A stretch of 64,000 bases of DNA from Candidatus Argoarchaeum ethanivorans. Its GTDB lineage: Archaea > Halobacteriota > Methanosarcinia > Methanosarcinales > EX4572-44. The notes beneath the pieces are model-generated. The model searched no databases, was not told where the DNA came from, and was given only the letters and a program-made list of their open reading frames with translations. Numbering within the stretch: the stretch's first letter is position 1; each line of letters starts with the position of its first letter. Location: NCBI GenBank assembly GCA_004193545.1, contig RPGO01000033.1:3841-67840 (forward strand), read 5' to 3'. Made by a program: the position numbers and the translations under genes. Positions 4,124 to 46,964 of the stretch are shown in pieces.

Positions 4124-5481
4124 TGCTTAAGAGTTTCGTCTTCTTTTCCCATCGCCTGCATTACTTCTGCAAGCATTTCCACCTGCACAACAGCAGTTCC
4201 TATATAGTCGTATGGATTCATAATCTGTGCAATCTCCTCTCTACTCAACGATTGACGAATAGTGGAATTTGCAAGAAGTGCATCCTGCATGTGAAGCTTT
4301 TCTTCTCGTGCGAGCATTGCACATTCACGCACAAGTTTGTGTGCTTCCTGCCGTCCAACACCCCTTTTTGCAAGTTCAATCATCACAGCTTCCCCCATAT
4401 TCAAACCATTAAGCAGTTCAAGGTTTTGCTTGATGTTGTCCGGGTAAAAACGAAGATTTTTAATGACCTTTGTTGCAGTTCTGAGGATGTGATCTGTGAG
4501 TATGCACACCTCCGGAAAGATCACCCGTTCAGAGGCTGAGTTGGTAAGATCCCGTTCATCCCATAGTGTATTATTTAGCAACTCTGGTTCAACCATGCCC
4601 CTAATCACTCGTGCAAGCCCGCAGATTTGTTCAGACTTGATTGGATTTCGCTTATGCGGCATCGTGGATGAGCCAACCTGTTTCTTGCCAAAACTTTCCT
4701 GGACTTCTCCAATCTCACTTCTCTGTAAGCTCCGGATCTCGGTGCTGATTTTATCAAGGGTGGTTGCAAGATTTGCCATCCAGAACACAAACTCACTGTG
4801 CCGATCTCTCTGGATGATCTGGTTTGACACGTCAACACTGTTAATTCCAAGATGTTTCATTGCCAATTCCTGCACTTTAAGTCCATGTTTGCCAAAGGCT
4901 GCCTGTGTGCCGGATGCACCACTCATCTTTCCAACCACCACTCTTGGTATCAGCTCTTTAAGACGAGTGATGTGCCTGTCGACTTCTGATGCCCAGATGG
5001 CAAATCTTAAGCCATAGGTTGTAGGTATTCCAATCTGCCCATGAGTGCGGGCAACACAGACAGTATTTTTATGTTCAAGAGCAAGTGCAGTTAGTACACT
5101 TCTAAGCCTTCGAGCCTGCACAAAGAAAATATCAATGGCATCCTTGAACTGTAGGGCGGTTGCAGTATCCAGCATGTCATTGGAAGTAGCACCAAAGTGC
5201 ACCCACTTTCCGTAATCGCCACACTGTTCAGATAATGCCAGTACTATAGCCATCATGTCGTGATTAATCTCGTCTTCAATCTCTTTAACCCGTTCAAGCT
5301 CTACCTTTGAGGCAGCATCTTCAATAGCTATAGCTGCATTTTTTGGAATCATTCCAATTTCCACCTCAGCATTAGCAAGAGCAACCTCGACACTAAGAAC
5401 TTTTTTTAGACGAGATTGTTCGTCCCATACACCCTTCATCTCATAACTGCCGTATCGAAACTCGATCGGATGAATTGCCAT
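4096..5481 (-). CDS. purB: adenylosuccinate lyase
   Basis: The start is taken at MAIHPIEFRYGSYEMKGVWDE. It shows fumarate-lyase family signatures (GSSTMPHKRNP) and is about 461 aa. Confidence 0.9.
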   Translation of the reverse strand: MAIHPIEFRYGSYEMKGVWDEQSRLKKVLSVEVALANAEVEIGMIPKNAAIAIEDAASKVELERVKEIEDEINHDMMAIVLALSEQCGDYGKWVHFGATSNDMLDTATALQFKDAIDIFFVQARRLRSVLTALALEHKNTVCVARTHGQIGIPTTYGLRFAIWASEVDRHITRLKELIPRVVVGKMSGASGTQAAFGKHGLKVQELAMKHLGINSVDVSNQIIQRDRHSEFVFWMANLATTLDKISTEIRSLQRSEIGEVQESFGKKQVGSSTMPHKRNPIKSEQICGLARVIRGMVEPELLNNTLWDERDLTNSASERVIFPEVCILTDHILRTATKVIKNLRFYPDNIKQNLELLNGLNMGEAVMIELAKRGVGRQEAHKLVRECAMLAREEKLHMQDALLANSTIRQSLSREEIAQIMNPYDYIGTAVVQVEMLAEVMQAMGKEDETLKHCKACALQK

Positions 5482-7742: not shown

Positions 7743-7805
7743 AAATGTTTATAAAAAGAAAATCACTAACAAGCCTTGTACCTATAAGTACGGGGTCGGT
7801 GACTT
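7743..7805 (+). repeat. 63-bp conserved element (copy a) ending GGGGTCGGTGACTT
   Basis: It is about 85% identical to the reverse complement of 33303-33365. It contains a TATA-like TTTATAAA and an imperfect hairpin CCTTGTAC-ctataa-GTACGGGG. Confidence 0.8.
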
Positions 7806-9526: not shown

Positions 9527-9687
9527 TAAGAAGAATGCCCAACTAACGGTCCACTGGATGCCCTGTATTTTAATTGAGAGTGGCACGGCTTGGGCTTATG
9601 CACAAAGAAGTTATGCAGGGCTGCAACATAAAAACCGTCTAATTTATGTAATATGTTTTCCATTGAAGCGTGACTTAAGGAGTTATT

Positions 9688-22616: not shown

Positions 22617-22943
22617 TATAGTCAAACACCCAACATTTAGGACTTTTGAATGTGTGGCGCAAATTTATTATAGTTACGAACCTAATATTTCTAACTTATG
22701 TTCCTCATCAATAAATTTTTCAATCCACCCTTTCGCAAAGCTAATCTGTGATGAATATTTCCGAAACTTATCAATGATTATCTCTTTCATGTGATTTAAA
22801 TCTACAGAATATTTCCGAAACTTATCAATGATTATCTCTTTCATGTGATTTAAATCTACAATAAACTCGCGTGAAATGACTTTCTTGATGCTTTTCCAGA
22901 TGAATTCAATTGGATTCCATGCGTGATCGGTTAAGCTCTCCAC
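22617..22943 (-). pseudogene. 3' fragment of an IS630-family transposase gene plus its terminal repeat region
   Basis: It has a C-terminal ..WNPIEFIWKSIKK.. motif. An in-frame 54-bp tandem duplication spans 22753-22860. The 54-bp end sequence 22617-22670 recurs at 48516-48569. Confidence 0.6.
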
Positions 22944-24372
22944 TCATCCATTAATCTCTTCCGATTTACGTTCGGATCAAGCGCTTGACTTTGATAAACT
23001 TCAAATAGCTCTATAAGGCTTGCATCAATATCTGAATAGTTGAGAATAGCATCAAAGAGTCGGTGTGCTTTTTCAACAAATATGGTTGCCCATCTCAAGT
23101 GGGTATATCTTGGCGCATTTTCGAGATTGGCCGAGAAAACCAAAAGGTATACACGTCTTGATATTATCAGTGCTAATATCCTCACCCATAAGAGTACTTT
23201 TACTATTTGTGGATTTGAAAAGGGCAAGATGTCAATGCCATATCTGCTTTTGAGTTCTTTAAAGATCTGTTCTATTTCCCATCTTGCCGAATATAGAACT
23301 GCTATATACTCAGCATCAAGTCGATCTGTAGGAATGTTTGTGATATAAGTATGATATTTTTTTCTTCTGTGTTATAAATCGCCACCATGCGGAATTTTTT
23401 CACATCTCTTTTTTGCTTTCCCTTATATTTTCTACGATTGAACTCAACTTCTACCTCAGCATCAATAACTTGCCTTTTCAGGTTATCTATAACCTCACTT
23501 ACTTTCTTTCCCATGATATCTATATAACGTCCACGACACGTACGGTTATTTTTTATAATAAGAGGATCGACCTTACCTTTCAGCCTACTGATAAAGAATC
23601 CACCATTTTCATCAATACGAGCGAAGGTATTGTGTTTATAAAATCCAAGATCTGTTAGTAGTATGCGATCTTTTAACCAGGGACCCATTCGAAGTGTCTT
23701 AACTTCACTGGTGCGTTCCCCATGTAATACTACCCTTTTAGGACCTTCTGCTATTGCACTAATAAGAAGACTTATTTTAACACCAGCAGCTGTTTTTCTT
23801 GTTCTTGCAGCAGGCCATTTATCAGCTAATCTCTCATGTAATCGAATGATTGTACTATCCTGAGCAACGATGTCTTTGAAACCGGATAGTTTATCATTCA
23901 GTTTCCGATTAGAGCTTTGCGTAATGTCTTCCGGACCATGTAAGATACAGGCATGAATAAATTTCACAAGTTCTGGTGTGAAACGATCATAAAAACTACT
24001 ACTACTGATGTGTATTTCACCTTTTTCTTCATAAAGGACGTCGCAAACTTGCTAACGTTCTCTGAAGCTGCACTCCAAATCCTAATGATAATGTCCAGAA
24101 CATAAGTACAGGATTTATCTTTCTGTCTCGCTTGATAAATCCCGTTTCTTTGGCTGTTTTTTGAAGAAATTCTGGTGAAAATAATCTACTGAGGTCTTCT
24201 TCTATTACTTTTGCTTTTTGTTTCTTTTTCGCCACTCAGATTCCCTCCGAATGGATGGGATATTCATGTAAATATATTTAAACTTTTACAGACAGCTTTT
24301 AATCAGTTATAGATGTACTCATTTTTCTAAAAACCATAAGCAAGGAGGCTATTAGATTCCTTAACCGATCAC
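22923..24372 (-). mobile_element. IS4-family-like insertion sequence with a frameshifted transposase
   Basis: A 13-bp perfect inverted repeat GTGATCGGTTAAG (22923-22935) pairs with CTTAACCGATCAC (24360-24372). The transposase is split over ORFs 24235-24029, 23967-23302 and 23227-22931. Confidence 0.65.
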
Positions 24373-24458
24373 CAATGGAGTGTGATAATTTCTTGGGACC
24401 AGTTTTTACTATGGCACAGTATTCATTCCCAGGTGATTCGTAACAAGTCTTAATAAAA

Positions 24459-25655
24459 ATGCCGCCAGTTCAATCATACATGTCTGAACGAAAACTAACA
24501 ATCGTTGTTGACATCAACGATGACGCAGTCAACAGCATAGAGGATCTCGAAAGGGAGATTCTTGCCCAAGACATCTGCGGGCAGGCGGCAAGGAAATATC
24601 TCGACAGTTTGCAGGATAATCTGGCACAACAAGTGGAAATAAGGAAGGGAAGCAAAAAAGTACACATCAAAACACCCCATTTTGAATTTGACTTCCATGC
24701 AAAGAGAACACTCGATGAAGCGGGGAAAAAACGTTTATAATACCTTATCTACACAACCGAAATAAAAATCTGCTCGATTCCATACATTATCCTTCATGGA
24801 AATACCTCTGCACAATAGTCTCATTTTCGGAGGCATCTTTTCTGATTGACATCTTACAGGGTATCAAAGTGAGTTCTTTTAAGTTAAAGAAGATATTTTA
24901 CGAAAGCAATGTACTCCCTGCAAGAAATCCAATTTATTCGCAATACAACTACCAAACGATCGGTGCTATAAGCATAGATGACACCAAATCGAAACGAAGG
25001 TCTGGCGGTCGTCCCAGCATCAAAGGAGCGTTGGGGCTCGATTTGGAAAGCGGGGAAGCGTTTCTTCTATACCTGGGTGCGGTCAAGAACTGGTCAGAGG
25101 CCCTATCCCCACATCAGGGATAATTACAACATTTCTGATGAAGTATATGCCATCTGCGACGGTGACGAAAACTTACAGCGGCATCTGGAAGGGTATGGCT
25201 ACAAAGTACAGCAATGCACGAATCATTTTGTCAAAACATCAATGTATTACCTGTGGAAAGAGCAATATCCAAAAGGTGAGCGAATGAAGCTCAAAAAGGA
25301 GATAAGCAGAATAATTTCTACGTTGAAGAATTCGGTGAAAAAGCACAGAATAGATCACGATTTTGCAAGACTCGAGTGGAGGATCGATAAGACCCAAAAA
25401 GAGTTGCTATTAATCGCCAATGAGTTGCTATCAAGGAACAAAGACAGCACTACTGCCAAATTTATTCTCAGGACTGCTGGCAAAGTAACCCTCTTCGCAG
25501 AATTGACAACAAGAGTAATACAGATTCATGACACCAACAATCATGTTGAAAAACTCATGGGGATCGTTGGACAGAGAATAAAGAAGAATCGCCAGTCATG
25601 GGTTGATAAGAACCTGGATATTATGGTGAACACAATCTGGCAGATAATCTCGTAG
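24459..25655 (+). pseudogene. second DDE transposase gene, fragmented (IS256/ISLre2-like motifs)
   Basis: Three overlapping or consecutive ORFs carry ISIDDT, ICDGDE and TNNHVEKLMG..R.KKNRQSW (D, D, E-like motifs). Confidence 0.5.
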
Positions 25656-25990
25656 GCGACGGTTTTGGGCATGTGTTGTTGTGTGTTCCGGATCCGCACC
25701 AGTGTTACTGGATTTTTCGGTCAGATCCCCAGTGCCCCAAATTGATACTGGTCCCAAATTATTTAATATTGAAATTAATAATTGATGGTGCAAAGAGTTT
25801 TTCAACGGGCGCTGGAAACTTTTTCAAGACTATTATGTTTTATAAAAATTTCCATTTCTATTCTTCGGGATCAAATAAAGATAAGAATACAATGCATTCC
25901 ATAGGAGTTAATTCAGATTCGATGTTTGATTTTATCCAATTGCATTAAGAGCGCCAACATGTAATGTAATGTAATACTCAAAAATTCCCC

Positions 25991-26256
25991 GATCCCAACC
26001 AAATAAAAAGGAAATACAAGACATATCAAGGAATACTCGCCTTTCTAACAAGAAAAATGGAATACTGGACATCAAAACATGGGAAGATACAACACCCAAC
26101 AAGTTGACAGCCCCCTTGTAGCAAAGTCTTTGATCCCAACCAAATAAAAAGGAAATACAAGACATATCAAGGAATACTCGCCTTTCTAACAAGAAAAATG
26201 GAATACTGGACATCAAAACATGGGAAGATACAACACCCAACAAGTTGACAGCCCCC
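25991..26256 (+). repeat. 125-bp perfect direct repeat, two copies separated by 16 bp
   Basis: 25991-26115 is identical to 26132-26256. The terminal 24 nt recurs inverted at 60019-60042. Confidence 0.9.
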
Positions 26257-26309
26257 ATTAAAGGGAATCCTTTTATCCTTTCAGTCAGTTCTATGAACTG
26301 TTTCAAAAG

Positions 26310-27266
26310 ATGACGATAAAATTGAATGAACTGCTTGATATTCAGGAGAATATCATATTAATGGAATCTGAATATCAAAACAATACTTACATAACAAAAA
26401 GCTTAAAATTTTTATATAACACTGTATCAGAGCTTTCACGATTTAATGAGCCAGTGGATGCGAAAATAATTATGCTTGAGGAATTGGGTAGCGTCTATGC
26501 TCTTGGGTTGTACAATCCTCCTATCAAGCAACCGGCCTTTTGGACACTACTCACAACAGTACTTGACACAGAACATCAAAACACATTTAACGAATTTGTG
26601 CATGCAATAAAAAGTCACATCGCAGATGAAGGTGTCTTAACACTCCATATTGAAAAAAGTGAGTTTATAGAAGCCATAAGGGAGTATTATTCGATAAAGC
26701 TTATAGAGACTCTAAAAAATTGTCCTGTTAACTCTGAGTTCGTATACAATAAGCCACGAGTGGAGCGGTTAAAAATAATAATAAATCAATTAGAACAATC
26801 CCATAGTCTTGACCTGTCTGGAAGGGTACTTGAAATATGCTGTGGCAACGGCATGGCAACCGCAGCTTTAAGCGAACTTGATATTCGACCGTTGTGTATA
26901 GACAACGATTCATATTCTATCCTCGAAGGACTTGCCAGTGAGGTGTTAAAACCGGAAAAAACGATAGTTGCAAATGTGGCAGAATTAACAGATGTTATAA
27001 AAGGTGAAGAATTTGACGCTTCTATTGGATTCATGCTTGGAGATATTGATGAATTCAACAGACCTTCATGGAAAGAGATACTAATACAAACCATAAAACT
27101 AACAAAAAAAGGCGGGAATCTCCTGTTTACTTTTCGAACAGAACCGGAAGTTGTGTTTGTCAAAGACTTGCTTGAAGAACTTGCAACAGGTGATGTGATT
27201 TGCCAGAGTGAAACAGAATCGCTGTATGATTGCTGGATATATATTGGAAAAAAGAAACCTGTGTAA
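26310..27266 (+). CDS. class I SAM-dependent methyltransferase with an unknown N-terminal domain
   Basis: Motif I-like VLEICCGNGMATAAL lies in the C-terminal half. The N-terminal about 170 aa has no recognisable motif. Confidence 0.6.
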   Translation: MTIKLNELLDIQENIILMESEYQNNTYITKSLKFLYNTVSELSRFNEPVDAKIIMLEELGSVYALGLYNPPIKQPAFWTLLTTVLDTEHQNTFNEFVHAIKSHIADEGVLTLHIEKSEFIEAIREYYSIKLIETLKNCPVNSEFVYNKPRVERLKIIINQLEQSHSLDLSGRVLEICCGNGMATAALSELDIRPLCIDNDSYSILEGLASEVLKPEKTIVANVAELTDVIKGEEFDASIGFMLGDIDEFNRPSWKEILIQTIKLTKKGGNLLFTFRTEPEVVFVKDLLEELATGDVICQSETESLYDCWIYIGKKKPV

Positions 27267-28345: not shown

Positions 28346-28564
28346 GTGAAATTAATAGTCCTTTATTTTATGCCACGTCAATGTCATCCCACAATATACC
28401 ATGATATACAAAAGTATATACATTTTTCTATTAACATCGCCAGAAATCAATTTCGCCTAACCTTCCGAGCATATACGATGTTGCGATCGAAGGGGGCAAT
28501 GTCCCGAAGGGCAAAGGCGTAAGCCCGTAGCGTATATGCGGTGTCATGTACTGTGTCGCCCAAA

Positions 28565-29374
28565 TTATTCTCTTGAAGCAAATCGTATACTATTTTCCCA
28601 TTCCTGATAAGGTTCAAGATCATATCGTTTTGCCACTTCTTTAAGATACTTCTTAGCTGTCCCTTGGGGCAATTCCAATCTTTCATCAAGTTTTTGATAG
28701 TGAACTAATTTGCCCATAAATACGGACGAATCACGATCCTTATAAAGGGTAGAATACTTAGTATAGTTATGATGCTCATTATACAAATACTCCTCATCCA
28801 ATACTTCTTTTAGCTCATCACTTGAATAAACCCCATATGGCCCCGTATATATCGTTCCCGTATCTAGATCTTTGCTATCTAATTTTAATTCCGTATATTT
28901 AGGAAGACGTGATTTTATAGCACTTCCCTTAAAACCTTTCATGTTTCCAAAGCCAAATTGATCGCAAAGGGTTTGAAAAAACAGTTTTATGTGTTCAGCT
29001 TTACCTAACGATAAAGCTTGCAACCGACTAAGTGGTTCAGGAAGTTCAGAAAATTCTATTTCAGGAGCACATAAGGGGTATATCCTACCTTTACCTTCAG
29101 TCATTTTAGACCAAGAAGCTCCTACTTCAAACCATATCCAAGGTCTATTGATAGAAACAGGCGTCATCAATACAACAACAGCCTTTGCTTTATCTAGATT
29201 TTCTTTGACACTATTTAGCCAGTCAGAACCAGGTTTCATAACGCCAGGTACACTTGAAGCAAAGACATGGACACCATTGGCAAACACACGATCAATTTCT
29301 GCTTTCAAGATTTCCGCGATAGGTTTATCTGTTGCAGCATGACTGACGAATATTACTGGCTTTTCGTTTTTCAT
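28565..29374 (-). CDS. TIR-like domain protein with an unknown C-terminal domain
   Basis: The N-terminal about 130 aa reads IFVSHAATDKPIAEILKAEI..VFASS....G..W...V...L..AKAVVVLMTP.S..RPWIWFEVG, a TIR/ThsB-like pattern including a candidate catalytic Glu. Confidence 0.7.
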   Translation of the reverse strand: MKNEKPVIFVSHAATDKPIAEILKAEIDRVFANGVHVFASSVPGVMKPGSDWLNSVKENLDKAKAVVVLMTPVSINRPWIWFEVGASWSKMTEGKGRIYPLCAPEIEFSELPEPLSRLQALSLGKAEHIKLFFQTLCDQFGFGNMKGFKGSAIKSRLPKYTELKLDSKDLDTGTIYTGPYGVYSSDELKEVLDEEYLYNEHHNYTKYSTLYKDRDSSVFMGKLVHYQKLDERLELPQGTAKKYLKEVAKRYDLEPYQEWENSIRFASRE

Positions 29375-29517
29375 ATTTTCCCTCTTTTATGCGGCATTTC
29401 ATATAACGGATTTGGTATATCTGAAGTTTTTGCGGAGCGTAGCGGAGCAAATTTAGGCGAAACGAAGTGAGCCGTATATGCGGTGTTATCTGCCGTCAAG
29501 ATTCCCTTTTTTTCATA

Positions 29518-30543
29518 CTATGCCTTGGTATTTTTTACAAATTTAATTGTCCGTTCCGCGGAGATTATCAAATCATTGTATGTGAGAATTTCTATTGCGG
29601 GATTCAGTCTCTCCTTCGCCCTTACTTTCTTCAGTTCATCATCAGAAATCCCAAATCCAATAATGAGATAACATTTTGGATTATCAAAGTTTAATCCTTT
29701 GCGTCCAAGGTAGTCTTTTTCTTCTCTCGCAAAATTTAGATACCTTTCTATCTGATTCCATGCATCATTGAATTCAGAAGTAAAATTTCTGTCTTTGCGA
29801 AAAATAGGTACAAATGGCTGTTTAATCTCAAAAATATCCCTATTTTTATTATTGACCTTTACTCCAGTAAAATCAGGGATGTTTTCATCATCAAGTTTTC
29901 TATGACCTTGGACTGATTCGTACCGGAGATCCAATACCCAAGAGTGTCTTTGGATCCATTTTTGATATTCAGATTCATTTGTTTCCCGTCTCTCGAGCAA
30001 TTCTTTTAGCTCATGAATAGGTTTGTCTAAATCAGAGATTTCGTTAGGTGGTAATGTCTTCAGCAGTTTTTTAACCTCCGCCCTACCAATAAAGATACAA
30101 TTTTCTGGACCCGGTTGTTCCCCAACTCTTATTTCTCTGGTTGATTTGGCAAATCTTAGTTCTTCTTTGTTACGATACAAAACAAACCCTCCCGCAAAAC
30201 GCTCTTCGCCCAATAAAAAAATAACCCCGTCTTCGACCCACTGATTGTGCTCTGGTGAAAAAAAGACTTCTTGTCCTGCCATATTAATACTTTTGAAGCT
30301 GTAGTTTTGGGTAATAGTATATCGCATTAAAGCGAGGAGAGATGCTCTTGTTTTGTTCGCAAGAAGGAACTCTGCAATACTCGGATACCTTTTGACCTTT
30401 GAAGGGTCAAGAATTGCCCTCAAAAGATCATCCATTGCCCCCGCACCAAGTAACTTACCCACTTCAGAGTCTGAAAGTTCCTGTAATATGTCCGCCAATT
30501 CCTTGGTTATCTGTTTCCCTCTTTTAATTTTTTCTTCGTTCAT
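29518..30543 (-). CDS. Shedu-like nuclease (DUF4263 / PD-(D/E)xK C-terminal domain) with an unknown N-terminal domain
   Basis: The C-terminal half reads ESEYQKWIQRHSWVLD...IPDF...DIFEIKQP...W.QIERYL......PKCYLIIG....TYNDLI. This matches the DUF4263 layout as I remember it. Confidence 0.7.
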   Translation of the reverse strand: MNEEKIKRGKQITKELADILQELSDSEVGKLLGAGAMDDLLRAILDPSKVKRYPSIAEFLLANKTRASLLALMRYTITQNYSFKSINMAGQEVFFSPEHNQWVEDGVIFLLGEERFAGGFVLYRNKEELRFAKSTREIRVGEQPGPENCIFIGRAEVKKLLKTLPPNEISDLDKPIHELKELLERRETNESEYQKWIQRHSWVLDLRYESVQGHRKLDDENIPDFTGVKVNNKNRDIFEIKQPFVPIFRKDRNFTSEFNDAWNQIERYLNFAREEKDYLGRKGLNFDNPKCYLIIGFGISDDELKKVRAKERLNPAIEILTYNDLIISAERTIKFVKNTKA

Positions 30544-30682
30544 TTTCTAACAGTCCATCTTTAACAAGTTGATGGCAGATAACTCATTTATATCTGCATT
30601 GCACATATCATTCCATTTTTGGAGTATATCTGCATTGCGTAGTATACTTATTTTGGATGTGTTGTCCAGCTTTTTCCATATG

Positions 30683-30925
30683 CTACCTCTTTGTTTCTTT
30701 GAAATCCAATGTATCCAGAGGGTTTATAATCTTCCCTATAGTTTTATTGTTTACATGGACATATATCTCTGTTTTTTTGTAGTTCCATACGTGCCCAATT
30801 TCAGTGCCTTGACTGTTATTCAGATTAACTCCCAATTTCTTTGATTTACCACCCATTGAAGTACCTGATGGTGGTTTTGTTTTGTAGCGTGATACAATCC
30901 AGATACATGCAACGAGAATTCTCAA
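30683..30925 (-). CDS. hypothetical small protein upstream of the Shedu-like gene (possibly frameshifted)
   Basis: It is an 80-codon ORF. A further open frame (IWKKLDNTSKISILRNADILQKWNDMCNADINELSAINLLKMDC) continues to 4 nt before the Shedu-like ATG. Confidence 0.25.
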   Translation of the reverse strand: MRILVACIWIVSRYKTKPPSGTSMGGKSKKLGVNLNNSQGTEIGHVWNYKKTEIYVHVNNKTIGKIINPLDTLDFKETKR

Positions 30926-31873: not shown

Positions 31874-31997
31874 GTCAAATCACATCTTATTCTATTATAA
31901 ATTTATTTGTTTTGCTACACTTGATTGCTGCGCAGCTACAACCTTGCCACACCCGGGATAAATTGCGGGACATCCCTGACAGTTGGACGAGACCTTA

Positions 31998-32291
31998 TTA
32001 TTTCCTTATAGATTCTCTTGCTCTATACTCTGCTTCCGCTTCTTTCTTTTCAAGTGCTTTCTCTATCCAGCGGACAGCATTTAAGTAATGTACTGTTATT
32101 CCAATTCCCCAACCTAAAAGAGGATAAAAAAACCAAATGGCCTCTGGAGAGTATATGAAATTAATAGCTATCAACATAGCGTTAACAAACACATACGCTA
32201 CTAGATGAATTAGAAAGTCCCTTTTCTCCTTCTCTGCATTCATTTCCCTGTATGCTTTTTTGTATTCCTCTAATGATATTTCTTCTGCCAT
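31998..32291 (-). CDS. 2TM-domain small membrane protein
   Basis: It is 97 aa with two adjacent TM helices (FLIHLVAYVFVNAMLIAINFIY / FFYPLLGWGIGITVHYL) flanked by charged helices. Confidence 0.6.
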   Translation of the reverse strand: MAEEISLEEYKKAYREMNAEKEKRDFLIHLVAYVFVNAMLIAINFIYSPEAIWFFYPLLGWGIGITVHYLNAVRWIEKALEKKEAEAEYRARESIRK

Positions 32292-32327
32292 ATTTTTTTA
32301 CCTCTGTACATAAGTCACTATACCCAT

Positions 32328-33287
32328 TCATTCATCTCTTGTAATCATCTTTTCGCTCCCACAGTTTGGGCAAAAAGGAGTTAAAATCGATCTCATTTTA
32401 CCACATTCTTGGCATTTATCAGCTAATTTTTTTCCACAATTTTGACAATAAGGCATATCATATCTGATAGGAAAAGTGCACCTTGGGCATTTATTTTCCT
32501 TTAGTCTAGACATGGAAATACGCTCAAGGCTGAAGAATTGCTTTTTGAGGTATGCAAGCGAGATGGCACATGCAACTACCCCTAAAATGGATATACCGAC
32601 CACATGGACCACTTCCCATACGTTCACGACAATCATGTATATCAATAACAGAGATGCAAATGCCATGAATGCATTAGCGTGGATAGTGTACTTGCTTTTC
32701 ACTTTCTTAGTCTTTAAAAACGTAACAATGGCAACTGCCAATAGGGGCAAAACAAAAGCTAACCTTACTGCCAAAACTTTCAAGCTATATATCTGGTGAG
32801 CAGTATTGTATTCGTCCCGCGCTAAATTACGAGCAGTAGATACTTTCCCCCTCTTTTGATCTAATCTCTCATCGATCTCATCGTAAATAGCTTGTTTCTC
32901 ATTAAGTTTTACTTGAGATTCCTCGTATCTTTCTCTTGCCTCTTCATATTTTCTTTCTTTTACTTCATCCGCCTCTCCTTTATCAAGTATTACCCTGTAT
33001 TCCTCTCTTTTAAACAGGTAGTTTTCTTTAGCACTAAGATATTGATCATTAGCCTTTGCCAAGGCATCACTGGCAATTCTTAACTCTGTATTAATGCTTC
33101 TTTCCACATTTTCCAACTTATAAACACCATATTTTTCATAATAAACGTTTATCTGAGGTATTTTAGGAATATCTTCTAACTCGCTAAGGACATTTATTCC
33201 TCCTATTAGAAGGAAAACAACCATAGCGGAAGCGAGTATTTTTTCGCCCCTTGTAGCCTCCAATTTTTCATCCTCATATTCTGACAT
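32328..33287 (-). CDS. membrane protein with a long coiled-coil and a C-terminal double zinc-ribbon
   Basis: It has an N-terminal TM helix, a charged coiled-coil and three TM helices. The C-terminus is CPRC..(10)..CQNCG...CQECG....CPNCG. AGGAGG precedes the ATG. Confidence 0.6.
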   Translation of the reverse strand: MSEYEDEKLEATRGEKILASAMVVFLLIGGINVLSELEDIPKIPQINVYYEKYGVYKLENVERSINTELRIASDALAKANDQYLSAKENYLFKREEYRVILDKGEADEVKERKYEEARERYEESQVKLNEKQAIYDEIDERLDQKRGKVSTARNLARDEYNTAHQIYSLKVLAVRLAFVLPLLAVAIVTFLKTKKVKSKYTIHANAFMAFASLLLIYMIVVNVWEVVHVVGISILGVVACAISLAYLKKQFFSLERISMSRLKENKCPRCTFPIRYDMPYCQNCGKKLADKCQECGKMRSILTPFCPNCGSEKMITRDE

Positions 33288-33302
33288 TATATTCCTCCTG
33301 AA

Positions 33303-33365
33303 AAGTCACTATACCCCATACTTATAAGTACAGAGCTTGTTAGTGATTTCTTCTTATAAACATTT
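33303..33365 (-). repeat. 63-bp conserved element (copy b)
   Basis: Its reverse complement aligns with 7743-7805 (about 85% identity, two 1-nt indels). It ends GGGGTATAGTGACTT, 15 nt before ATG 33287. Confidence 0.8.
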
Positions 33366-33623
33366 TGGTTTTACAGTTATAAAATATTTTGGTAAATATT
33401 TATATAAATCTGACTCTGTAAGAACCAAAAACAGTGTGTTTATTGTGCTGCATTCTTCCCGCCGCTTCATGCAGAACTAATCCAGTGATTTATCACCGCG
33501 GAGAGTGCAGAGGATGCAGAGTTTTAAAGACCGTTCCAATCCTCGCTCTGGTTTTCTAACGGCTCTCTCGTTCTCAGCGTGCTCTGCGGTAATATTTAAG
33601 GATATAGTGATAACACTCGGATT

Positions 33624-34145
33624 TTACTGTTGTTTCAAGTTTTTATGTTTTCTCTCTAAAAAGTTATACACCGTCCCATGTGGAGAGCCATTAATTAACA
33701 TTTCAATGCCTGTGCGTACTACTCGATTTTGTTCAGGGTAACCGATAATGCTTACTGTTTTGCCATAGATCGAAATGCTGCTTCCAGTCATTACTTCAAG
33801 ATACTCCCGCATTTTTCCGCCGGCACCGATGATACGACCATTGACACGCTTTATGTCTTTTTCACTGGATGCATACTCAGATATATCGATTATCTCAAAG
33901 ACCAGTGCTTCATCATTAGAAAGACGCATGGCTTTTTCCGGATTAAAACCCCTGCCTATTGCAAGCACAATTTCCCTTGTACGCAAAGCCATCAATGGGT
34001 CTGCATGACTAATCTCCACCGTGCCGGTGCTGCTGCTTATCTGAAGCTCACATCCTGTTTTCTCTTCGATCGCTCTTTTAACTGCTGCCTGTGGTCCAAT
34101 GAGAACTCCAATTCTCTCGTGCGGTATCATAACATATTGCATCAT
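33624..34145 (-). CDS. KH-domain RNA-binding protein (archaeal Dim2/Pno1-like)
   Basis: It has two KH modules (IGVLIGPQAAVKRAIE; GRIIGAGGKMREYLE). It sits in the conserved aIF1A-Rio1-KH neighbourhood. Confidence 0.8.
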   Translation of the reverse strand: MMQYVMIPHERIGVLIGPQAAVKRAIEEKTGCELQISSSTGTVEISHADPLMALRTREIVLAIGRGFNPEKAMRLSNDEALVFEIIDISEYASSEKDIKRVNGRIIGAGGKMREYLEVMTGSSISIYGKTVSIIGYPEQNRVVRTGIEMLINGSPHGTVYNFLERKHKNLKQQ

Positions 34146-42942: not shown

Positions 42943-43223
42943 ATGCATGGCACTGTTTGGGATGATAGATAGGCTCATCCTGGCGGTGCTGTTGCAGTGG
43001 GGGATGTGAGTATTTTTATAGAGAGTCTGTTAGAAGATTCTCGTAAGACTTATGTGGGATGTGTTCTCGATTAGTGTGCATGGAGTGCAGAGAACTGTGC
43101 AAGGCATTAAGGTAGTGCCTTGGTCTGTGGGAACCATCCTGCTTACATGGATCGGTTGGACATGGATGGAAGGTTGTGGAGCGATACATACAGAATCAGG
43201 AGAAGCCAAATGCGAAATCGCTA

Positions 43224-43262
43224 TGTACAGGCTCCGTACTTAAGTCCGGGGTTTGGTGACTT
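43224..43262 (+). repeat. partial copy (3' 39 nt) of the 63-bp element, ending GGGGTTTGGTGACTT
   Basis: It aligns with 7767-7805. It marks the switch from nif-flank sequence to AT-rich sequence. Confidence 0.6.
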
Positions 43263-44815: not shown

Positions 44816-44922
44816 AATACAACATTAAAGCTTATAACTTTCCTAATAAAAATCCCACGCATGATTTGAAAATAAAAAGCAGACAAACTTACAAAATATA
44901 AAATTTGAGCATCCTCTTGATG

Positions 44923-44953
44923 CCTCCCGTTTCTAGCGGGAGGTCGTGACTTA
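44923..44953 (+). repeat. hairpin plus TCGTGACTTA junction motif
   Basis: CCTCCCG-tttctag-CGGGAGG is followed by TCGTGACTTA. Compare GGGGTCGGTGACTTA at 7792-7806. Confidence 0.65.
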
Positions 44954-45131: not shown

Positions 45132-46964
45132 ATGGAAAATCTAACCAATAAGATAATTATTGAAAGGATAGAAATGGCTTTTGGTAAAAGAATCGTCTTT
45201 TTCGTCGGCGCTGGGATATCAGTTCCCTCAGGAGTTCGAGACTTTAAGAAATTGACTGAAGAGGTTATACAAACGCTTGCAGACGATGAACTTGAAGAGC
45301 TTGAGGAGAAAGATCTTGAAAAGAAAAAGAAGGATTATGAATTACTCACTGAGAACATTCGGCCTGAGGTCATGTACCAGATGGCGATGGACGAACTAGA
45401 CTCGAAAGTACTTTATTCTTTGGAAATGTTGGAGGGATACGAGCCGAATTATTACCATTATTTCTTGGCAGAGGTTATCAGGCGAGGTAATTGGGTATTT
45501 ACTACAAATCAAGACAATTTGATAGAGGAAGCTTGCAAGAGAAGGGGAATGAAACCGGAGGTAGATTTCAAAACATATTATGGCCGCGGCAATGACGAGG
45601 ATTTCAGAGAATACCTTCGATATATAAATTCTGGGGATATATATAGAGGGTGTATATTCAAGTTGCATGGTAGCATCGAGGAGGATGCAAGGGGAGAAGA
45701 AAAATATAAGACAGTTCGATTTTCACTCCGACAGGTTGGGGAAGGGTTATTTGGACCTAGAAAGGAAGTTCTCGAATATTTCCTTAAGGAATTCGATTTC
45801 TGCTTCATAGGCTACAGATGTAGGGATGACTTTAGCGTGTTCCCTGTGCTTTCAAGTACGAAAAGTGACAAGAATATATTTTGGTCTCGTTTTGATGAAG
45901 GACCCCTTAGTTTATACATTCCAAAAGAAGACAGGCTTCTGTGGGAAACGGAAAAAGAAGAAAATAAACCATTAGATGAGAAGAGGAATTTAGATCTGCT
46001 CAATATAAATGAGGTTCTCTTGCAAAGAGGCAAAAAGTTCGTATTCAGTGGTAACTTAGGCGAATTCATAAACGTTAAGCTGCCCACTCTATTAGGAGTT
46101 AAAAACCTTTCTTTTGATGAAGAAAAAGCAAGGGAAAAAGGAAAGGCGAAGGAAAGTGGGGCTTTCTTCAGATGGGCTAAGAGTAAAGAGAAGTTTGAGC
46201 GGTATCTATTCCTGGGACGTTTATTTGAGCACGCGGGTAAGTTGAATAATGGAATTGAGTCCTGTAGCAAAGCATTAGGCGAGGCAAAGAATGATTTCCA
46301 ACTTATAAGGGCAAAACAGAAACTGGCTGATCTTTACTACAGAAGACAAGAAGGGGATGATGAAGGGGAGGCGAGCAAGCTTTATGAGCAATGTATTAAT
46401 TCCTCTAAGGATCCACTTGAAAGGGCAAGTCTGAAGGCCAGCCTCTCCAATATTCTACGCAGGCGAGGGAAAGATTTTTACTCTGAAGCATATGTGACGG
46501 CAGAAAAAGCAAAAGAAGAATTTGAAACGTATATTATTGAGGGGAAGGGTAAGGGGTTGGATTATGCTAGGTGCTTAAATATTCATGGATTGGCCCTTTA
46601 TAGTATAGGCAAGTTTGAGGAGGCAAGGAAATCCTGTTCAGATAGCATAAATGTAAAGCAAGATTTGGGCGACGTTGATGGGATAGCAGAATCAGAAAAT
46701 GGAATAAGCTTAGCCTTTACCCAGGAGGGTAGAAGGCTTAAAGATCAAGGAAATAAGGAAGAAGCCAAAGATAAATTTTTTAAAGCTATTGAGCATGCAA
46801 GAAGAGCTCTTGATTGTAGGCGAAAGATAGGAAATTTTAGAGGGTATGCTCAGAACAGCCGTAACTTGGCTTGGCCGAATAGCGAGCTGATGAAACTTGC
46901 CTCGAAAGAAGATGAAGACAAGAATACTTCAAAAAAGCAAGAGATGGTTACAAAGCCGGGATAA
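45132..46964 (+). CDS. SIR2-family (sirtuin-like NADase) domain fused to TPR-like repeats; zero-frame product
   Basis: It reads VFFVGAGISVPSG, TTNQDNLIEE and KLHGS. The C-terminal half is helical-repeat-like. No Walker A is seen. Confidence 0.75.
   Translation: MENLTNKIIIERIEMAFGKRIVFFVGAGISVPSGVRDFKKLTEEVIQTLADDELEELEEKDLEKKKKDYELLTENIRPEVMYQMAMDELDSKVLYSLEMLEGYEPNYYHYFLAEVIRRGNWVFTTNQDNLIEEACKRRGMKPEVDFKTYYGRGNDEDFREYLRYINSGDIYRGCIFKLHGSIEEDARGEEKYKTVRFSLRQVGEGLFGPRKEVLEYFLKEFDFCFIGYRCRDDFSVFPVLSSTKSDKNIFWSRFDEGPLSLYIPKEDRLLWETEKEENKPLDEKRNLDLLNINEVLLQRGKKFVFSGNLGEFINVKLPTLLGVKNLSFDEEKAREKGKAKESGAFFRWAKSKEKFERYLFLGRLFEHAGKLNNGIESCSKALGEAKNDFQLIRAKQKLADLYYRRQEGDDEGEASKLYEQCINSSKDPLERASLKASLSNILRRRGKDFYSEAYVTAEKAKEEFETYIIEGKGKGLDYARCLNIHGLALYSIGKFEEARKSCSDSINVKQDLGDVDGIAESENGISLAFTQEGRRLKDQGNKEEAKDKFFKAIEHARRALDCRRKIGNFRGYAQNSRNLAWPNSELMKLASKEDEDKNTSKKQEMVTKPG
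46931..46937 (+). promoter_or_regulatory. candidate -1 frameshift heptamer A AAA AAG, in phase with the SIR2-TPR zero frame
   Basis: The zero-frame codons are tcA AAA AAG. The -1 frame is open from 46916 through 47284. Confidence 0.4.

Follow-up and report, generated by a model that had tools for sequence, protein, structure and literature searches.

Has the gene for a double zinc-ribbon protein in Candidatus Argoarchaeum ethanivorans been inserted as a cassette at a dedicated recombination site? The question is raised by a locus within 64,000 nucleotides of this archaeon (contig RPGO01000033.1, positions 3,841 to 67,840; this whole stretch is referred to as the window, and all positions are numbered within it). 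Here, a gene for a double zinc-ribbon protein of 319 aa, termed DZR (32328..33287, minus strand; Pfam PF12773, 5e-09), is followed by a 2TM-domain gene of 97 aa (31998..32291, minus strand; PF13239, 7e-19), and the minus-strand sequence GGGTATAGTGACTT is found free of mismatches on both sides of DZR, at 33316-33303 and at 32325-32312. The left copy is separated by 15 nt (TTCAGGAGGAATATA) from the ATG of DZR, whereas the right copy starts 2 nt past its TGA and is separated by 20 nt (ATGTACAGAGGTAAAAAAAT) from the ATG of the 2TM gene. The original prediction had called both genes and reported this 14-bp direct repeat; the Pfam matches bear out the gene calls, and coordinates and spacings are all exact. 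However, the 14-mer is not a private recombination core: it forms the 3'-terminal 14 nt of the right end (RE) of an insertion sequence (IS) of the IS200/IS605 family. Sequence comparison indicates that the two 14-mers are probably both copies of this RE tip, and that DZR was presumably relocated between the RE and the 2TM gene by a template switch or a microhomology deletion.

Metagenomes were scanned for the reverse complement of TAAGYAYGGGGTAT(N)GTGACTT (21 nt required, of which 19 bases are specified), and at least 120 contigs matched. The RE of these copies finishes with a hairpin, CYYYGTAC..GTACGGGG, and then TAT(A)GTGACTT, 11 nt separating the hairpin from the end of the RE. Column conservation is about 100% up to GTGACTT and falls to background directly after it, and the downstream flanks are unrelated among copies. 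The 5' arm of the hairpin varies mainly by C/T opposite G, with pairing kept, and one variant (L135; compared loci are given as L numbers) has a wholly different stem, CCCCGTTTT/AAAACGGGG, followed by TATAGTGACTT. In some pairs of copies, the similarity reaches 700-960 nt upstream, and open reading frames (ORFs) for a Y1 transposase are located upstream of the RE in L163, L070, L080, L123, L122, L140, L143, L152, and L132. Their product has the HUH and Y motifs of IS200 transposases and matches PF01797 (Y1_Tnp) with an E value of 4.7e-33. The upstream sequence of type 1 comprises the 3' end of tnpA (..AHKTWYTSLYNKLFGGxHQK, then the stop) and a box that resembles the archaeal B recognition element and TATA box (BRE/TATA-like box, AAATCGAAAAGCTTTTATATA); about 23 nt past the TATA-like box, there are some 67 nt of structured sequence that close in GTGACTT. 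Left ends, recovered at nine loci, begin with ATCTCTTTTCTCC. At the recovered ends, neither terminal inverted repeats nor target duplications were found, and the flanks of L070, L080, and L051 have no common direct repeat; the flanks of the nine left ends finish with TCA, GTA, CCA, TCG, or ATG, with no clear consensus and a boundary that is uncertain by 1-2 nt. The full element of about 950 nt consists of the left end, the Y1 (HUH) transposase gene, the BRE/TATA-like box, and the structured RE, and its features match those that define the IS200/IS605 family (PMC3597680, PMC3333891). Most copies are transposase-less RE remnants of varying 5' extent, of which a few are cut back to about 21 nt. 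The element is extremely abundant in archaea of the GoM-Arc1 and anaerobic methanotrophic (ANME) type and, as far as our literature searches reached, this IS200-group element has not been described.

The RE copies are frequently located in front of genes. A co-oriented ORF of at least 60 aa starts within 120 nt of 87 of the 108 nonredundant copies (81%; median distance, 37 nt), compared to 43% at random positions, and the 83 ORFs downstream of RE copies form 64 clusters. In 61 of 109 copies, a TATA-like box precedes the tip at a distance of 40-125 nt, as against 13% at random positions; its resemblance to the archaeal BRE/TATA consensus suggests a putative outward promoter in the RE. The original prediction had also considered that the repeat may have arisen by duplication of a leader, which does not hold, because the 14-mer is not a private leader but an RE terminus in front of many unrelated genes. 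In substance, the 14-mer has the wide distribution of a generic leader, a distribution that had been named as speaking against insertion at this core. Yet it is not a ribosome-binding site, being distinct from the Shine-Dalgarno sequences, which vary from gene to gene. A general enrichment of GTGACTT before start codons was considered and rejected, as there are 9 occurrences in the window compared to roughly 8 expected at uniform base frequencies.

An RE profile search (nhmmer) identified three hairpin-bearing RE copies in the window, which additionally contains one orphan tip. One of the hairpin-bearing copies lies in front of DZR (33303..33373, minus strand; nhmmer match at 33348-33303, E value of 8e-09) and comprises a TATA-like box, TTTATAAG (33360-33353), the hairpin CTCTGTACTTA/TAAGTATGGGG (33335-33314), and the terminus GGGGTATAGTGACTT (33317-33303), the final 14 nt of which are the left 14-mer (33303..33316, minus strand), where the conservation across copies stops. 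This copy shares 79% identity (blastn) with the last 72 nt of the complete IS of L181. Since it matches the end of a complete element, has no transposase attached, and no tnpA relic was found upstream of it, it is a solo RE. The right 14-mer (32312..32325, minus strand) is an orphan RE terminus and, among about 185 loci compared, the sole copy that has no hairpin. A third copy of GGGTATAGTGACTT with at most one mismatch is absent from the window, and the nearest further relative, at 43249-43262 on the plus strand, has two mismatches.

Relatives of the 2TM gene show where the RE is usually found. The GoM-Arc1 relative L032 has the order gctaacaaaCCCTGTACCTATTAAGTACGGGGTATAGTGACTT-aggtggtgagaaaat-ATG(2TM), with the spacer aggtggtgag and no DZR, and its counterpart in the window is cactaacaagCTCTGTACTTATAAGTATGGGGTATAGTGACTT-ttcaggaggaatata-ATG(DZR). 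Likewise, the ANME-1 loci L049, L051, and L035 possess the same hairpin and GGGGTATGTGACTT in front of the 2TM gene and no DZR, and L051 has the whole IS directly before it. Relatives resembling the empty sites that the original prediction called for thus exist, and they imply that DZR, together with its own leader, sits between the element and its usual 2TM neighbor. The leaders on either side are consistent with this. The 15 nt after the left copy (TTCAGGAGGAATATA; 33288..33302, minus strand) are the native Shine-Dalgarno leader of DZR, because the same leader precedes the 88%-identical DZR of L007, which has a different genome context; native DZR leaders of the CTTTCAGGAG type are found in L184 and L006. 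The 20 nt after the right copy (ATGTACAGAGGTAAAAAAAT; 32292..32311, minus strand) are the Shine-Dalgarno leader of this 2TM subfamily, since its closest relatives L013 and L014 carry them behind unrelated upstream sequences, and the 14-mer is missing in both. As a separate observation, positions 4840-5060 of L032 contain aggcgaaaagcgctaacaaaccctgt twice before the RE hairpin and a 57-nt stretch twice inside the 2TM ORF, where the frame is broken; these duplications may be real or assembly artefacts.

DZR itself has a different home. The protein is 100% identical to a Candidatus Argoarchaeum ethanivorans protein; a look-up of the exact protein sequence gave no entry. Its translation shows a hydrophobic segment at the N-terminus, then a long helical region of charged character, three more hydrophobic segments, and, at the C-terminus, the double zinc ribbon with four CxxC pairs, and its family occurs in GoM-Arc1 archaea and in Thermococcales. 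Orthologs with 72-77% identity are found in other contexts and never beside a 2TM gene. In several relatives with 75% identity, the order is TrxR (thioredoxin reductase)<>DZR-tRNA-arginase, the tRNA having been read by eye, and in Thermococcus it is arginase-S8e-DZR. The linkage to arginase in two distant orders indicates that this is the old position of DZR and that the arrangement KH-DZR-2TM is derived; elsewhere, DZR is a vertically conserved chromosomal gene. In the lineages in which DZR was not relocated (L002-L011 and L185), inspection by eye places a tRNA gene within about 100 nt downstream of DZR, and in L003 a phage-integrase gene follows this tRNA, so that the DZR-tRNA position may itself be an integration hotspot.

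A single sister genome has the same arrangement. L001 (= L012, GoM-Arc1-GOS) has the order RIO-KH-DZR-2TM-GalT with about 94% DNA identity to the window, but it has no perfect repeat. A 22-nt deletion of TATAGTGACTTTTCAGGAGGAA between two TATA tetranucleotides (5964-6000 in L001, compared to 33288-33325 in the window) took the distal half of the left copy and the Shine-Dalgarno sequence of DZR, the front of which now reads ACGGGGTATAATG, and the right copy is GGGTATAGCGATTT, with 2 of 14 bases changed. Since one copy is halved and the other altered in L001, the pair of 14-mers is not under constraint, and the copies would have no present function as a repeat. The pair is thus not retained with the same insertion in L001, and no other locus has a DZR bounded by the 14-mer. 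The comparison with the sister genome points to an ancestral right copy that was a 15-mer, GGGGTATAG.GA.TT.

The junctions suggest how DZR may have arrived. In L185, the C-terminus of DZR is encoded by ..ACAAGACAAAGCGATGGGGATGCTGAATAA (QSDGDAE, then the stop), and the sequence that appears as a tail relic elsewhere reads GATGGGGATGCTGAATAA as coding sequence. L010 has a premature DZR stop, followed by atcaATGGGTATGCTGAATAA, and the tail relic ATGGGTATGCTGAATAA; the DZR tail of L007 is TGAtgcGGTATGaaa, GGTATG, and that of the window is TGAATGGGTATAGTGACTT. A relic, ATGGGTAT, is therefore present in the 3' flank of DZR and matches the RE tip A(C/T)GGGGTAT, which accounts for the start of the orphan only 2 nt past the stop codon; the right 14-mer is probably of hybrid origin, in part DZR tail relic (ATGGGTAT) and in part RE tip (AGTGACTT). 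Initially, the RE would have stood directly before the 2TM gene, the arrangement still seen in L032, L049, and L051. The chromosomal DZR would then have moved between the two in the common ancestor of Candidatus Argoarchaeum and GoM-Arc1-GOS, bringing its own Shine-Dalgarno leader and its 3'-tail relic. The left junction would be at CTT, common to the RE tip and the DZR leader (CTTTCAGG), and the right junction at (AT)GGGTAT, which the RE tip has in common with the DZR tail relic, so that the microhomology at both junctions is with one and the same 15-nt RE tip. Two routes may be envisaged. In the first, a template switch, replication would have departed from the RE at ..GACTT to copy DZR and would have resumed on the RE at GGGTAT, 14-15 nt upstream of where it had left, so that the tip was duplicated. 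In the second, DZR would have been located upstream of a full RE-2TM unit, and a microhomology deletion from the tail relic to the RE tip would have removed the (second) RE body. Such events are known as microhomology-mediated break-induced replication, fork stalling and template switching (MMBIR/FoSTeS), and microhomology-mediated end joining (MMEJ). The DZR locus resembles their products in that the insertion is bounded by a short duplication of the recipient, with microhomologies of 3-9 nt between donor and recipient at both junctions, as judged here by sequence comparison. We infer from this history that DZR was relocated here once and only in this lineage. DZR and the 2TM gene would now be transcribed as a bicistronic unit served by the solo RE with its TATA-like box; such transcription is probable because the 40-nt spacer between the genes has no TATA-like box.

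Several points weigh against this explanation. The arrangement is shared with one sister genome alone, which is compatible with more than one order of events and with either route. At 3 nt for the left junction and 8-9 nt for the right one, the microhomologies are short, and the resemblance between tail relic and RE tip could be coincidental. Truncation of an RE from the 5' side to 14 nt is not documented as a recurrent event, the orphan tip being the only copy of its kind, and the metagenome pattern, which requires 21 nt, is blind to shorter remnants. Because the pattern by which the RE copies were gathered allows no variation in the 3' arm of the hairpin, the sample is biased toward conserved copies. 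Finally, the promoter activity ascribed to the RE is drawn entirely from the resemblance to the archaeal BRE/TATA consensus and is accordingly putative.

Other explanations of the repeat were considered. One is that the 14-mer is a functional cis element required by each gene, for instance for RNA processing, as a 5'-end stabilizer, as a translation enhancer, or as a regulator site, and that both copies have been kept by selection. This would agree with its near-invariance in more than 100 copies, with the short distances to co-oriented ORFs, with the location of both window copies 15-20 nt before a start codon, and with the pairing kept in the hairpin, including the variant stem. However, the sister genome deleted half of the left copy together with the Shine-Dalgarno sequence and changed two bases of the right copy while the coding flanks remained about 95% identical, the right copy has no hairpin, although the hairpin accompanies the motif everywhere else, and the 2TM genes of L013 and L014 have the same Shine-Dalgarno leader and do without the 14-mer. 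The conservation is explained by recognition by the transposase and recent spread of the IS. In addition, no Rfam family was found at the gathering threshold in the whole window or at E values up to 1 in the region 31900-33650, and a scan of the window for tRNA and tmRNA found none, so that the RE leader is not a known riboswitch or noncoding RNA. Taken together, a required cis element is improbable. A tRNA-like cloverleaf for the 67-nt RE of type 1, which was considered by eye, was rejected because there is no T arm and no U33. It is likewise an improbable idea that the RE is not mere debris but a portable promoter whose structured 5' leader stops exactly where the transposon does, with transcription running on into any sequence beyond. 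Such a module would resemble a miniature right-end omega-RNA scaffold in a tnpA-only element and could have been co-opted for accessory genes or could serve a trans-encoded RNA-guided nuclease, the tip perhaps being a preferred landing pad for the capture of genes such as DZR.

Transposase- or att-mediated insertion is unlikely as well. DZR would in this case be the passenger of a mobile unit that moved by site-specific recombination or by TnpA-mediated "peel and paste" at the 14-bp core, the left copy being the target and the right copy the right end of the unit, with a circle junction GTGACTT/TTCAGG. The order core-leader-gene-core-leader-gene is the outcome expected when a circle integrates at a common core, and the inserted segment ends exactly with an RE tip and lies exactly 3' of another; moreover, the DZR of L007 is likewise bracketed by two copies of a repeat, termed hairpin B below. 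IS200/IS605 transposases, however, need the subterminal hairpin (e.g., PMC3597680), which the right copy does not have, and the start of the DZR segment shows neither a hairpin nor homology to a left end. Targeting by the IS of its own tip, by which tandem insertion would have generated the repeat, was rejected, since none of the nine true left-end flanks ends with GTGACTT. There is also no recombinase gene beside DZR, the segment consisting only of the DZR ORF and its leader between the KH-domain gene and the 2TM gene, and DZR is elsewhere a vertically conserved chromosomal gene. We thus consider a mobile unit of this kind very unlikely. What stands of the insertion originally proposed is that DZR arrived between the element and the 2TM gene in a lineage-specific manner and that the 14-mers mark the junctions; the notion of the 14-mer as a dedicated recombination core has to be given up. 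As bare statistics, the repeat pair is weak, as Markov-2 shuffles yield 0.61 exact direct repeats per window that are 14 nt or longer and lie within 1.5 kb, and at least one in 44% of shuffles, but a chance coincidence in AT-rich intergenic DNA is extremely improbable. The 14-mer is homologous to a family of repeats of which more than 120 further members occur elsewhere. The right copy does not differ from the invariant tip of this family, which has three further copies in the window, and its boundary falls at the family boundary; in addition, the sister genome indicates an ancestral right copy of 15 nt.

The two genes had furthermore been suggested to be reminiscent of a membrane-disrupting effector module, a suggestion that finds no support in their distribution. 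Relatives of the 2TM gene were compared at 50 loci (40-96% identity, most of them 57-86%) in metagenome-assembled genomes (MAGs) of diverse archaea and some bacteria, with sometimes several copies per MAG. With the window and the sister contig excluded, DZR is present within the compared flanks of none of the 48 2TM loci, and no examined DZR locus has a 2TM gene. Nothing links the function of DZR to that of the 2TM gene, and the two are not a functional module or pair. No 2TM relatives were found on viral contigs, which provides no sign of a viral origin.

Compared to known systems, the element agrees with the models of the IS200 group, which carries tnpA only (IS608 and IS200), in its Y1/HUH transposase (PF01797), its subterminal imperfect hairpin 11 nt from a sharp right end, the absence of terminal inverted repeats and target-site duplications, and the many transposase-less derivatives. 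It differs from these models in that the RE has an outward BRE/TATA-like box and lies in sense orientation near start codons in 81% of copies; it has no tnpB or omega-RNA gene and is found in archaea of the GoM-Arc1/ANME type. Intergenic hairpin repeats that are short, very abundant, and akin to the ends of Y1 elements, and that have no transposase of their own, are also known as palindrome-associated or miniature inverted-repeat transposable elements (PATEs/MITEs) derived from IS200/IS605, e.g., in Haloquadratum walsbyi (PMC3119063), and as repetitive extragenic palindromes and bacterial interspersed mosaic elements (REP/BIME) with REP-associated Y1 tyrosine transposases (RAYTs) (PMC3333891, PMC2817692). 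Unlike the two-ended PATEs, most copies described here look like right-end-only remnants with variable 5' extents, and whereas REP/RAYT systems have one domesticated RAYT between inverted REPs, the transposase here resides in a multicopy IS.

Integrons, in which gene cassettes carry attC sites, occur in archaea, and their cassettes have spread across domains (PMC9668308). The 2TM gene is a cassette gene with attC-like sites (R'' GTATAAC ... R' GTTATAC) at other loci, but the 14-mer was rejected as an attC or attI site, as it has 14 nt only and no R''/L''/L'/R' palindrome. No attC site (R''-L''-L'-R', 55-140 nt) was found 3' of DZR, the DZR-2TM spacer of 40 nt contains no palindrome, and DZR was a cassette gene in none of the loci examined. 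The attC-like sites that flank the 2TM gene in many loci read GTATAACAGCGGATAAAAG...CTTTTATCCGC..AACGTTATAC, in the form GTATAAC-AGCGGATAAAAG ... CTTTTATCCGC-AAAAC-GTTATAC, and the cassette has a conserved 5' region, TTATACGCAATCGGCTTCGGGACGC. Such sites bound the 2TM gene in L013, L014, L015, L018, L019, L022, L025, L026, L028, L029, L031, L039-L042, and L044. The 2TM gene thus appears to be a recurrent cross-domain integron cassette, its attC-bounded occurrence across archaeal and bacterial MAGs being in line with the reported spread of cassettes between domains. The assignments of attC-like sites and REs are based on homology and not on folding energy, as the DNA folding z-scores of both kinds of segment were not significant.

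The window also has what appears to be a decayed chromosomal integron with Shedu and TIR defense cassettes (28455-30799, minus strand). On this strand, a 34-aa integrase relic with a tyrosine-recombinase C-terminus (TEIYVHV..GKIINPLD; 30799-30698) is followed by an attI-like site of two GCAATGCAGATATA repeats and then GTTATCT (~30640-30575) upstream of a Shedu-like gene (29518-30543), an attC-like site (29491-29401), a TIR gene (28565-29374), and a further attC-like site (28549-28455). A second 14-bp repeat that brackets a gene, ACACCGCATATACG (29473-29486 and 28531-28544), is the R''/L'' arm of both attC-like sites that flank the TIR gene; the canonical GTTAGGC forms the end of one of them. 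The integrase relic shares 62% identity with a relic after the KH gene in the Methanoperedens locus L015 (PF00589, 5e-18). In this MAG (L015, 3538-5801), the RIO-KH operon is followed directly by the C-terminal relic of the integrase, behind which there are a C_GCAxxG_C_C cassette and a tandem of two 2TM cassettes, each with an attC site. The integron relic of the window is apparently in the same chromosomal neighborhood as that of Methanoperedens, next to the RIO-KH operon: DZR has genes for a RIO kinase and a KH-domain protein upstream, and past the 2TM gene there follow a GalT/HIT-like gene, the Shedu-like gene (SduA_C), and the TIR gene.

The other RE copies in the window are located before genes of different kinds. 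The second solo RE, of the same subtype (7743..7805, plus strand; profile match at 7762-7805), shares a 63-nt block with the copy before DZR and lies 89 nt upstream of a gene pair for an R.HinP1I-like restriction endonuclease and an N6/N4 methylase, which is located between ribB and SRP54; GTGACTG just 5' of this copy lies in apparently degenerate tnpA-distal sequence. A lone GTGACTT (9670-9676, plus strand) stands directly before the Shine-Dalgarno sequence of SRP54 (gcGTGACTTaaggagttattATG). It is the only GTGACTT beside a Shine-Dalgarno sequence outside RE copies and would mirror the DZR case but may be due to chance. The third copy (43217-43262 within 43116..43262, plus strand; nhmmer E value of 1.2e-07) has upstream of it what remains of the 3' end of a Y1 transposase gene (43116-43202, plus strand; tblastn with TnpA, 70% identity over 30 aa, E value of 5.5e-09) and is followed by DUF7019 and SIR2-like genes. 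A hairpin with the same tip, CCTCCCGtttctagCGGGAGGtcGTGACTT (44921-44952, plus strand), between a 150-aa ORF and a SIR2-like gene (45132-46964), may be a further RE variant.

A second repeat family, hairpin B (CCCGCAATTTATCCCGGG + TGTGGCAAGGTTGTAGCT), is located downstream of the 2TM gene (31935..31975, minus strand). It reads GGATGCC-TCGGAATTTATTCCGAGG-GTGGAGAGGTTGGGGCTT, with a sharp 3' boundary at GGGGCTT, and is also found in L007 (185-228 and 1245-1290), L013 (~4935-4980), about 100 nt downstream of the 2TM gene in L051 and L050, and in L146. It lies immediately in front of the leader of DZR in L007 and of that of the 2TM gene in L013 and may be the end of another Y1-type element. The KH-DZR spacer (33420-33600, minus strand) contains an inverted repeat, ACCGCAGAG ... 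CTCTCCGCGGT, with no Rfam match, and about 51 nt (CACTGGATTAGTTCTGCATGAAGCGGCGGGAAGAATGCAGCACAATAAACA) of this spacer are present in the window and missing from L001. Further IS debris, on the lower-coordinate side of the integron relic (22750-26310), includes a fragment of a DDE_Tnp_1 transposase (23302-23967); in the same region, 54 nt are duplicated in tandem (22753/22807) and 125 nt recur as a direct repeat (25991/26132).

The value of the cassette-like repeat is mainly negative: it consists of two IS tips and not of a cassette boundary with its own recombination system, and the genes on either side of the second tip are not a pair. What appears to be a decayed integron with Shedu and TIR cassettes lies beside the RIO-KH operon of Candidatus Argoarchaeum, and its site seems to be shared with a Methanoperedens MAG. 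The DZR locus provides a worked example of IS ends that seed local rearrangements by which new operons are built. An apparently undescribed and very abundant IS200-family element of alkane- and methane-oxidizing archaea could influence how genes are expressed in these uncultured lineages and could cause their metagenome assemblies to break.

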